DNA of 64,000 nt from the NCBI RefSeq assembly GCF_057098645.1, contig NZ_CM169472.1. One strand, given 5' to 3'. Made by a program: the position numbers. This document shows positions 39,001 to 42,000 of the stretch, in pieces. How positions within the stretch are numbered: the stretch's first letter is position 1; the number at the start of each line of letters is the position of its first letter.

Positions 39001-42000
39001 TGCCACCCTTAATTCAACGGGCTATGGATTTATCGGAGGAAATACCTCCGGTAAGGGGATAGTTAATATTTCAACGGATAGTCTCTGGAATTTAAAGACA
39101 TCATCTACTAACGCCCAATTGCTACAGGTCGGTGTATTAGGCACGGGTGAACTGAATATTACCACCGGAGGTATAGTAGACTGGCCCCCTGAATCTCCAG
39201 ACAACCAGTATCACTTAAATAAGTGATAGTCTTAATACTAGTTTTTAGACTAGTCATTGGAGAACAGATGATTGATGTCTTAGGGCCGGAGAAACGCAGA
39301 CGGCGTACCACACAGGAAAAGATCGCAATTGTTCAGCAGAGCTTTGAACCGGGGATGACGGTCTCCCTCGTTGCCCGGCAACATGGTGTAGCAGCCAGCC
39401 AGTTATTTCTCTGGCGTAAGCAATACCAGGAAGGAAGTCTTACTGCTGTGGCCGCCGGAGAACAGGTTGTTCCTGCCTCTGAACTTGCTGCCGCCATGAA
39501 GCAGATTAAAGAACTCCAGCGCCTGCTCGGCAAGAAAACGATGGAAAATGAACTCCTCAAAGAAGCCGTTGAATATGGACGGGCAAAAAAGTGGATAGCG
39601 CACGCGCCCTTATTGCCCGGGGATGGGGAGTAAGCTTAGTCAGCCGTTGTCTCCGGGTGTCGCGTGCGCAGTTGTACGTCATTCTCAGACGAACCGATGA
39701 CTGGATGGATGGCCGCCGCAGTCGTCACCCTGATGAGAGACTGCGTGTCACGTTCGCGCTGGACTGCTGTGATCGTGAGGCACTGCACTGGGCGGTGACT
39801 ACCGGCGGCTTCAACAGTGAAACAGTACAGGACGTCATGCTGGGAGCGGTGGAACGCCGCTTCGGCAACGATCTTCCGTCGTCTCCAGTGGAGTGGCTGA
39901 CGGATAATGGTTCATGCTACCGGGCTAATGAAACACGCCAGTTCGCCCGGATGTTGGGACTTGAACCGAAGAACACGGCGGTGCGGAGTCCGGAGAGTAA
40001 CGGAATAGCAGAGAGCTTCGTGAAAACGATAAAGCGTGACTACATCAGTATCATGCCCAAACCAGACGGGTTAACGGCAGCAAAGAACCTTGCAGAGGCG
40101 TTCGAGCATTATAACGAATGGCATCCGCATAGTGCGCTGGGTTATCGCTCGCCACGGGAATATCTGCGGCAGTGGGCTTGTAATGGGTTAAGTGATAACA
40201 GATGTCTGGAAATATAGGGGCAAATCCATATAGTTAAAGCGCGTGATACACAGATAGCTCTCAATGACAAAAGTAAGGGCGACGTGAGGGTGGATGGGCA
40301 GAACTCTCTTCTTGAAACATTCAATATGTACGTAGGGACATCTGGTACGGGTACGTTAACCCTGACGAATAGCGGCACGCTGAATGTCGAAGGTGGAGAA
40401 GTTTACTTAGGTGTTTTTGAACCTGCTGTAGGATCGCTAAACATTGGTACAGCTCACGGTGAGGCGGCGGCAGATGCCGGGTATATAACCAACGCGACGA
40501 AAGTAGAGTTTGGTTCTGGCGAAGGTGTTTTTGTCTTTAATCATACTAATAACAGTGATGCCGGCTACCAGGTCGATATGCTGATTACAGGTGACGATAA
40601 AGACGGAAAAGTGATCCATGATGCAGGCCATACGGTGTTCAATGCAGGGAATACTTATAGCGGTAAAACGCTGGTCAATGACGGCCTCCTGACCATTGCG
40701 TCTCATACGGCAGATGGGGTAACGGGCATGGGTTCGAGTGAAGTAACCATTGCAAGCCCCGGTACGCTCGACATTCTCGCATCAACGAACAGTGCAGGAG
40801 ATTACACGCTGACCAATGCGCTCAAAGGCGATGGCTTGATGCGAGTGCAGCTGTCATCCTCCGACAAGATGTTTGGCTTTACCCATGCAACAGGGACTGA
40901 ATTCGCCGGTGTTGCCCAAGTGAAAGACAGTACCTTCACTCTGGAACGCGACAACACCGCTGCGCTTACTCACGCGATGTTGCAGTCTGACAGTGAAAAT
41001 ACCACATCGGTAAACGTGGGAGAGCAATCCATTGGTGGACTGGCCATGAATGGCGGTACGCTCATTTTCGATACGGATATTCCTGCTGCGACGCTTGCAG
41101 AGGGATATATCAGCGTCGATACGCTGGTTGTCGGCGCGGGTGACTACACCTGGAAAGGACGTAACTATCAGGTAAACGGGACGGGCGACGTGCTTATCGA
41201 CGTGCCTAAACCGTGGAATGATCCCATGGCGAATAACCCTCTGACGACGCTCAATTTGCTGGAACACGATGATAACCATGTCGGCGTTCAACTGGTGAAG
41301 GCGCAAACGGTTATTGGGTCGGGTGGCTCATTAACGTTACGTGATTTACAGGGCGACGAGGTGGAAGCGGACAAAACGTTACACATTGCGCAAAACGGAA
41401 CGGTGGTCGCCGAGGGTGATTATGGATTCCGCCTCACGACCGCACCAGGTGATGGTTTGTACGTTAACTATGGGCTGAAAGCGCTGAACATCCATGGAGG
41501 GCAAAAGCTGACGTTAGCCGAACATGGCGGAGCCTATGGCGCAACGGCCGATATGTCGGCAAAAATCGGTGGTGAAGGGGATCTGGCAATCAATACGGTG
41601 CGACAGGTTTCGCTTTCCAACGGTCAGTTACAGGGGGAACGCTGGCTATCGAGGGGCTTAATGCACGCTACAATGCGTTAACCAGCGTTAGCCCAAATGC
41701 GGAAGTCAGCCTCGATAATACGCAGGGGTTAGGCAGAGGAAATATTGCCAATGACGGTCTGTTAACGCTAAAAAACGTGACTGGCGAACTGCGTAATAGC
41801 ATAAGCGGGAAGGGTATCGTGAGCGCAACCGCCAGCACAGATGTAGAGCTGGATGGCGATAATAGCCGCTTTGTGGGGCAATTCAACATTGATACAGGCA
41901 GCGCGCTCAGCGTCAACGAGCAGAAAAACCTGGGTGATGCTTCCGTTATCAATAATGGCCTGCTCATCATCTCCACTGAGCGTAGCTGGGCGATGACGCA

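Follow-up and report, generated by a model that had tools for sequence, protein, structure and literature searches.

The whole 64-kb stretch of DNA that was analysed here (the window) carries one copy of the insertion sequence IS2 that is 1052 bp long and that has lost 279 bp from the interior of orfB. Judged by its sequence, this element is a non-autonomous IS2 derivative in which the two ends, orfA and the frameshift site are intact. We consider it very probable that a full-length IS2 inserted at this locus and that the 279 bp were lost later, in place, leaving a defective non-autonomous copy behind.

An IS2 element with intact ends inside an autotransporter pseudogene

Two 30-mers taken from the left and the right end of IS2 were used to search the window, with a chance expectation of 0 matches for either. 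Each matched exactly once and with 0 mismatches, at 39177-39206 on the (+) strand and at 40199-40228 on the (-) strand, respectively, and by the searches with both 30-mers the 64-kb window holds a single IS2 copy. The first letters of the element at 39177-40228 are TAGACTGGCCCCCTGAATC and the last are GGGGCAAATCCA. Its parts, together with the flanking duplication, are as follows.

39177-40228, + strand: IS2 derivative of 1052 bp, corresponding to IS2 minus nt 561-839 (alignment with four 1331-bp IS2 copies)
39172-39176, no strand assigned: left TATAG of the 5-bp target site duplication (single TATAG in the empty sites of KD602, O157:H7 and K-12)
40229-40233, no strand assigned: right TATAG of the 5-bp target site duplication (flank sequence)
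39177-39218, + strand: IRL, the left inverted repeat, 42 bp with a TA-end, serving as recipient end and including the OrfA operator and the weak promoter P_IRL (identical to the reference copies)
40188-40228, + strand: IRR, the 41-bp right inverted repeat, donor end, closing in ...CA-3' (right-end match and alignment)

The lengths and roles of IRL (42 bp) and IRR (41 bp), as well as the roles of the weak promoter P_IRL and of the OrfA operator within IRL, are taken from PMC3299598. Both inverted repeats of the window element are identical to those of four IS2 copies of 1331 bp. The unoccupied site reads GGAGG-TATAG-TTAAAG, with a single TATAG, in KD602, O157:H7 PV15-279, K-12 and thousands of other genomes. 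As TATAG is found on both sides of the IS2 in the window and only once at the empty sites, the duplication is a genuine 5-bp one, which shows that the element arrived by transposition. The first-pass annotation of this DNA had described recognisable IS2 termini, a TATAG target duplication of 5 bp and a length of 1052 bp in place of the canonical 1331 bp; the exact single matches of both end 30-mers, the copies at 39172-39176 and 40229-40233 set against uninterrupted single-TATAG sites elsewhere, and the length of all four reference copies (1331 bp) agree with this description.

The gene that received the insertion is split by it into two parts.

37457-39176, + strand: 5' part of an ECSE_1600 (ydbA-type) autotransporter pseudogene, interrupted by the IS (NCBIfam NF011422, positions 1-573)
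40229-43687, + strand: 3' part of the ECSE_1600-type autotransporter pseudogene, with a frameshift near 41613-41780 (NCBIfam and frame analysis)

The host ORF continues for 50 nt into the IS, giving rise to a chimeric ORF of 589 aa, while the final ORF of the 3' part matches positions 1171-1806 of the NF011422 profile. A truncated host gene was considered and ruled out, since the match extends to the last of the 1806 profile positions. When the IS and one TATAG were removed in silico, frame 0 was open for 1055 codons and then shifted to frame 2. The same autotransporter gene is annotated as "frameshifted; internal stop" in O145:H28 RM13514, and downstream of the IS site the window and RM13514 show no indel differences. 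On its reading frames, the host gene was a pseudogene, or became one, independently of the IS. The earlier placement of the insertion within an autotransporter pseudogene is thereby borne out, by the ECSE_1600-family match and by a frameshift that does not depend on the IS.

A single 279-bp deletion with 2 bp of microhomology

Four reference copies of IS2, of 1331 bp each, were taken from complete genomes (LZHX12, KD602, RM13322 and O55:H7 DEC5B). The end-to-end alignment of the window element with these four references contains one gap, of 279 bp, covering IS2 nt 561-839. A GA dinucleotide is common to both breakpoints (2-bp microhomology), so that a gap at 559-837 is an equally valid description.

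39735-39736, + strand: deletion junction, GA dinucleotide (alignment; junction placed at 39735/39736-39737)

The sequence across the deletion junction includes CGTCACCCTGATGAGAGACTGCG. Outside the gap, the element is 99.8% identical to the EHEC/O55:H7 IS2 variant over the 1052 retained bases, and only two differences separate it from the IS2 copies of RM13322 and DEC5B. One of these private changes, C>G at 39450, is synonymous in orfA; the other, A>C at 39729, causes T155P and lies 6 nt upstream of the deletion junction. The first-pass annotation had predicted an in-frame shortfall of about 279 bp inside orfB, and this is what the one gap at nt 561-839 amounts to, there being no full-length collinearity with IS2; the IS2 length and the InsD sequence on which that prediction relied match the full-length reference copies.

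The same annotation had proposed a check for short direct repeats at the junction. We ran it and found the 2-bp GA common to both breakpoints and nothing longer: a direct repeat of more than 2 bp was sought at the breakpoints without result. A repeat-mediated deletion was considered on account of the imperfect repeats TGATACGGA and TGATAACGGA nearby and was rejected, as they mispredict the junction and lie within chance expectation. A 7-bp inverted pair near the junction (CGCAGTC / GACTGCG) was likewise set aside, since it does not predict the observed breakpoints and is also within chance expectation. By the sequence at its breakpoints, the deletion has the character of an illegitimate, microhomology-level event.

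The shortened OrfAB would lack the first catalytic aspartate

The coding features of the element are the following.

39268-39633, + strand: orfA (InsC, the IS2 repressor TnpA), 121 aa, intact (Pfam HTH_Tnp_1; NCBIfam NF006928)
39585-39591, + strand: A6G programmed -1 frameshift window, intact (sequence and OrfAB reconstruction)
39591-40217, + strand: orfB remnant of 208 codons vs 301, without InsD residues 49-141 (ORF, Pfam and NCBIfam)

In the window element orfB lies in the -1 frame relative to orfA, and the role of the A6G window in programmed -1 frameshifting is known from PMC3299598. We reconstructed OrfAB through the A6G slippery site at 39585-39591 for both the full-length and the shortened element, obtaining 409 aa for the former vs 316 aa for the window element, from which residues 157-249 are gone. 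The catalytic carboxylates of OrfAB are D240, D306 and E342 (Lewis et al., PMC3219604), and the full-length reconstruction places them exactly as in that paper. D240, the first of the three, falls within the deleted residues 157-249; D306 and E342 are kept. In the domain map of OrfAB given in PMC3219604, the catalytic core corresponds to residues 236-398 and is preceded by a "middle interval"; by this map the loss consists of most of the middle interval plus the N-terminal 14 residues of the core, so that the bulk of what was deleted (157-235) comes from the middle interval and not from the catalytic core.

Profile searches gave a similar picture at the level of domains. In Pfam, the rve match of the window element begins only at profile position ~20, and HTH_21 is no longer detected. 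Residues 1-111 of the OrfAB reconstruction, which are encoded by orfA, scored 240 bits with NCBIfam NF006928 "IS2 repressor TnpA" vs a cut-off of 229. The shortened OrfAB reconstruction reached 456 bits with the NCBIfam profile "IS2 transposase TnpB", under its 597-bit cut-off, and 193 bits with NF033516 "IS3 family transposase" vs a cut-off of 160 bits. The promoter-bearing IRL, orfA, the frameshift window and IRR are all retained, the synonymous change at 39450 being the only one in orfA.

DDE transposases need all three catalytic residues. Given this established requirement and the absence of D240, we infer that the window element would be unable to make an active transposase and to catalyse its own transposition. 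The earlier view that about 93 residues had been lost from InsD, including part of the catalytic core, is matched by the absence of OrfAB residues 157-249 with D240 among them; likewise, the proposal of a non-autonomous IS2 derivative fits an element whose termini, duplication, orfA and frameshift site are intact and whose D240 is missing.

The junction is found in no other sequence searched, and the insertion is shared by draft contigs

To search for the deletion elsewhere, a junction 40-mer was used, CGCAGTCGTCACCCTGATGAGAGACTGCGTGTCACGTTCG, in which each side is too short to seed a match with normal IS2. Neither the 5,426 complete E. coli genomes nor the 72,556 plasmids searched contained a match to this 40-nt probe; as a 40-nt pattern it was likewise absent from GTDB species representatives and from JGI metagenomes. 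The 208-aa ORF and three alternative start variants, looked up exactly, were absent from a collection of 15 billion proteins and from the gene index, and the best hits of a homology search in 5.8 billion clusters did not carry the junction, being only full-length InsD or a few differently deleted proteins. The best 25 of ~24,000 IS2 matches in E. coli genomes all had the two-piece, 1331-bp form. We see no sign of a family of 1052-bp elements or of a spread of the short form.

With a left-junction query, IS2 at the exact TATAG site was not found in complete genomes, where only nearby non-identical sites were returned, and the junction pattern for this site had no match in metagenomes or among GTDB representatives. 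Many complete genomes carry IS2 at other sites in the first kilobase of the same autotransporter gene. The chimeric 589-aa ORF is on record as MCQ0418903.1 and is present on at least seven draft E. coli contigs; assemblies with this insertion include GCA_024357405.1, GCA_029357705.1 and GCA_900195455.1. The draft contigs with the same insertion all end inside the IS, before reaching the deletion junction. One of them, L009 (GCA_024357405.1), also has the private G at IS position 274 and breaks at IS position 498/499, which is polymorphic among IS2 copies. Related EHEC/O55:H7 genomes hold up to 13 or more IS2 copies, and the lineage of the window probably carries other IS2 copies as well. The occurrence of the same insertion on at least seven draft contigs means that it was inherited within a small lineage, as expected for a single-locus event that is passed on vertically.

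Origin of the short copy

The history that we favour would begin in an E. coli lineage that is a very close relative of O145:H28. There, a full-length IS2 (IS3 family, 1331 bp) would have transposed into the TATAG of an autotransporter gene of the ECSE_1600/ydbA type and made the usual 5-bp duplication. An illegitimate deletion, joining two GA dinucleotides in one step, would afterwards have removed IS2 nt 561-839 but spared orfA, which encodes the IS2 repressor, as well as the frameshift site, the promoter region and the two inverted repeats. The resulting relic would be immobile unless another IS2 copy supplied the transposase, and it may still express OrfA together with a catalytically dead end-binding protein. 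We infer this order of events by parsimony, and a residual regulatory effect of the relic is likewise put forward as a possibility. The first-pass annotation had offered two histories, insertion followed by deletion or mobilisation in trans. The former is favoured because none of the collections searched yielded a second copy of the junction, and the latter is left unsupported.

It seems improbable that the element was already 1052 bp long at insertion and that its mobilisation relied on OrfAB provided in trans by another, full-length IS2 of the genome. With both inverted repeats intact and a perfect target duplication, the short element looks like a competent substrate, and partner copies are probable in the lineage, considering the break of L009 at 498/499 and the 13 or more copies in relatives. 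However, the public collections searched hold no second copy of the junction and the window holds only one copy of the element. A single mobilisation with subsequent loss of the parent copy would take more steps than a deletion in place. The preference of IS3-family transposases for acting in cis also counts against mobilisation in trans. An assembly artefact, that is a mis-join within a multicopy repeat at a locus that in reality holds a 1331-bp IS2, would be in line with the reputation of IS copies as classic trouble spots for assemblers, with the drafts of the same lineage that break inside the IS and with a junction seen in no other record searched. Nevertheless, we hold such an error to be extremely unlikely: the breakpoint is single and clean, with 2 bp of microhomology and no further rearrangement, a private substitution stands only 6 nt away, apart from this locus the window follows RM13514 collinearly (99.95% identical, with two 1-bp indels in 46 kb), and independent in-frame deletions of the same orfB region are known in public IS2-group sequences, which shows that alleles of this type do exist.

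A different question is whether the remnant was kept as a domesticated regulator, with OrfA and a dead OrfAB repressing or poisoning other IS2 copies. The IRL promoter is bound by OrfA, a repressor (PMC3299598); orfA has survived intact along with the promoter region and the frameshift site, the reading frame is kept across the deletion, and the dead OrfAB would retain its DNA-binding and oligomerisation domains. Against this, an in-frame outcome has a 1-in-3 chance, the element has been lost altogether from the nearest sequenced lineage, and of the two private substitutions one changes the protein (T155P), and we give domestication very little credence.

A possible excision scar in O145:H28

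Over 46 kb, the window and O145:H28 RM13514 are 99.95% identical, with 21 substitutions and two 1-bp indels. RM13514 and 23 of the 23 complete O145:H28 genomes have no IS at the insertion point, which reads GGAGG-TATA-TATAG-TTAAAG, and the same TATA-TATAG sequence was observed in the draft assemblies L012, L013, L015 and L016.

When G39176 and 39177-40228 are taken out of the window, the remaining sequence, GGAGGTATATATAGTT, equals that of all 23 complete O145:H28 genomes. The TATA-TATAG of O145:H28 is the sole multi-base indel between the window and RM13514 in 46 kb and lies exactly at the IS junction. In the first step of IS2 transposition IRR alone is cleaved, and its 3'-OH attacks the same strand 1 base outside IRL in 90% of cases (PMC3299598). 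At the present locus, A39175 would end up with a 3'-OH and T40229 with a 5'-phosphate in this figure-of-eight reaction, and the joining of these two ends would give the O145:H28 sequence. O145:H28 moreover carries the IS-excision enhancer gene iee (PMC5567499). The TATA-TATAG of O145:H28 thus looks, at the level of sequence, like a scar of IS2 excision; we hold this to be its likeliest reading, on which the insertion would be ancestral to the scar-bearing clade.

We tentatively suggest, as a possibility that is rather less than even, that the insertion predates O145:H28, that iee-positive strains excised the IS through a transposase-dependent figure-of-eight reaction and kept the duplication minus the canonical 1-bp spacer as a natural scar specific to IS2, and that the window copy is a surviving witness. 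Its preservation may be due to its own dead transposase, which would be unable to bring about excision in cis. The scar model does not account for two further indel alleles that other lineages show at this position, TATAG-G-TATAG (NCTC11121, NCTC9966) and the loss of 1 bp (L014, L017). A search of 5,426 genomes for the scar predicted at the ehaB::IS2 insertion of RM13322, the one site tried, gave no match. As the target of the insertion, TATATATAG of O145:H28 was also considered and was rejected, as the window flanks minus one duplication give the common TATAG site instead.

Significance and comparison with known systems

Defective IS copies are commonplace, IS2 is the best-studied IS of E. 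coli, and the present copy is another decayed example in a broken adhesin gene. In practical terms, 39177-40228 should be annotated as a defective IS2 and not as a transposase gene, and the unique junction and the insertion site provide clean lineage markers for the sub-lineage adjoining O145:H28. The window copy and the 4-bp scar of O145:H28 would constitute a natural before/after pair for IS2 excision in iee-positive EHEC, and the scar in this sister lineage is the only part that we consider worth specialist follow-up.

For that scar, the paradigm is IS629, whose excision in EHEC depends on the transposase and on IEE; O145:H28 is likewise iee-positive and the IS is missing at this site. Excision of IS629 is precise, whereas the O145:H28 scar keeps 4 extra bases, which is expected only if the duplication of IS2 (5 bp) exceeds its spacer (1 bp) in length. 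The proposed parallel with IS629 concerns the empty site in the O145:H28 relatives and not the window element.

The window element itself is closest to the IS2 of K-12 and EHEC (WP_148713461.1 / WP_088895425.1), with which it shares the inverted repeats, the length of the duplication, orfA, the A6G window and the C-terminal two thirds of orfB; it differs from them by the absence of nt 561-839 (OrfAB 157-249, with D240) and by two private substitutions. A comparable insertion is found in the K-12-like LZHX12, where an IS2 of identical orientation sits within the N-terminal kilobase of this ECSE_1600/ydbA gene, but that IS2 lies 39 bp upstream of the window site, has the duplication GTATT and is full length, and it represents an independent event. 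The IS2 of KD602 in the same autotransporter gene, full length and with the duplication GTCAG, is another independent event. In-frame orfB deletions around the first catalytic aspartate, with the N- and C-terminal parts of InsD kept, are present in other IS2-group copies in public data (P0102, P0103 and P0117); these were found by their resemblance to the query, so that their clustering in this region of orfB carries no weight, and their other breakpoints and a backbone that is ~87-90% identical point to independent events. Finally, MITE-like families mobilised in trans consist of several short copies at different loci, each with its own duplication, whereas the junction of the window element had no match in the collections searched and the window holds one copy only; what it has in common with such families are ends that a transposase would be expected to recognise, as these are identical in sequence to the ends of full-length copies.

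The IS2 insertion point in O145:H28 genomes and in draft contigs

The following intervals were compared:

Window 39172-39176 and 40229-40233: TATAG target duplication flanking the IS2 copy
L006 (O145:H28 RM13514) 39640-39648: empty site

All of the complete O145:H28 genomes (23/23) lack the IS and read TATA-TATAG at the insertion point. The window gives exactly this sequence once the IS is taken out together with a single base, G39176, which adjoins the left inverted repeat (IRL). TATA-TATAG is the product expected if IS2 left as a figure-of-eight with its canonical 1-bp spacer and the donor flanks were rejoined, and it is therefore probably an excision scar, in a lineage that is positive for the IS-excision enhancer gene iee.

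Two further alleles were observed at exactly the same spot, TATAG-G-TATAG (+6) in NCTC11121 (L007 133-181) and identically in NCTC9966, and TATAG-TAAAG (-1 T) in the comparison sequences L014 and L017, around position 2929. Both belong to lineages other than O145:H28, and the 1-bp-spacer scar model accounts for neither. IS elements may have targeted the TATAG insertion point repeatedly, or it may be indel-prone for other reasons.

The identical insertion was found, through the chimeric 589-aa ORF MCQ0418903.1, on seven draft E. coli contigs (L009, L010 and L011 among them). Like the window, L009 (from GCA_024357405.1) has the private G at IS position 274. This contig ends at IS position 498, immediately ahead of a position at which IS2 copies differ from one another, suggesting that other IS2 copies are present in that genome.

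IS insertions along the autotransporter gene

Insertion positions were compared between window ~38,900-39,200 and L001, L002 and the matches H56-H95. Over the initial ~1.7 kb of ECSE_1600/ydbA, E. coli strains differ in where IS2 and other IS3-family elements are inserted, and many positions are occupied; the IS2 insertion of LZHX12 is 39 bp upstream of that in the window, with the duplication GTATT, and that of KD602 has the duplication GTCAG. This pattern suggests that the start of the gene is a regional insertion hot spot.

Other comparisons with RM13514

When window 345-4048 was compared with L006 1-4517, an intact 455-codon ydfJ-type transporter gene was observed in the window, adjoining rspA/rspB-like genes for a ManD-type dehydratase and a Zn-dependent oxidoreductase, whereas prophage genes and an IS3-family element cut ydfJ short in RM13514; that prophage insertion is thus missing from the source strain. 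In ydeI, annotated as frameshifted in RM13514, the window has an extra A (10696 versus L006 11165) and its gene may be intact. At window 43,900-45,000, homology with RM13514 indicates that hipB is followed only by a hipA fragment and a frameshifted HTH gene, and the hipB/hipA locus, too, is predicted to be decayed.

Deletions in orfB

Just 6 nt separate the deletion junction (39735/39736-39737) from a private A>C upstream of it, at window 39729 (T155P), and the same error-prone event may have produced both. Among public IS2-group InsD variants, P0102, P0103 and P0117 carry three further independent in-frame internal deletions in the same orfB region, and the first catalytic aspartate is missing from all three. 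P0103 also appears to be chimeric, combining two diverged IS2-group elements.
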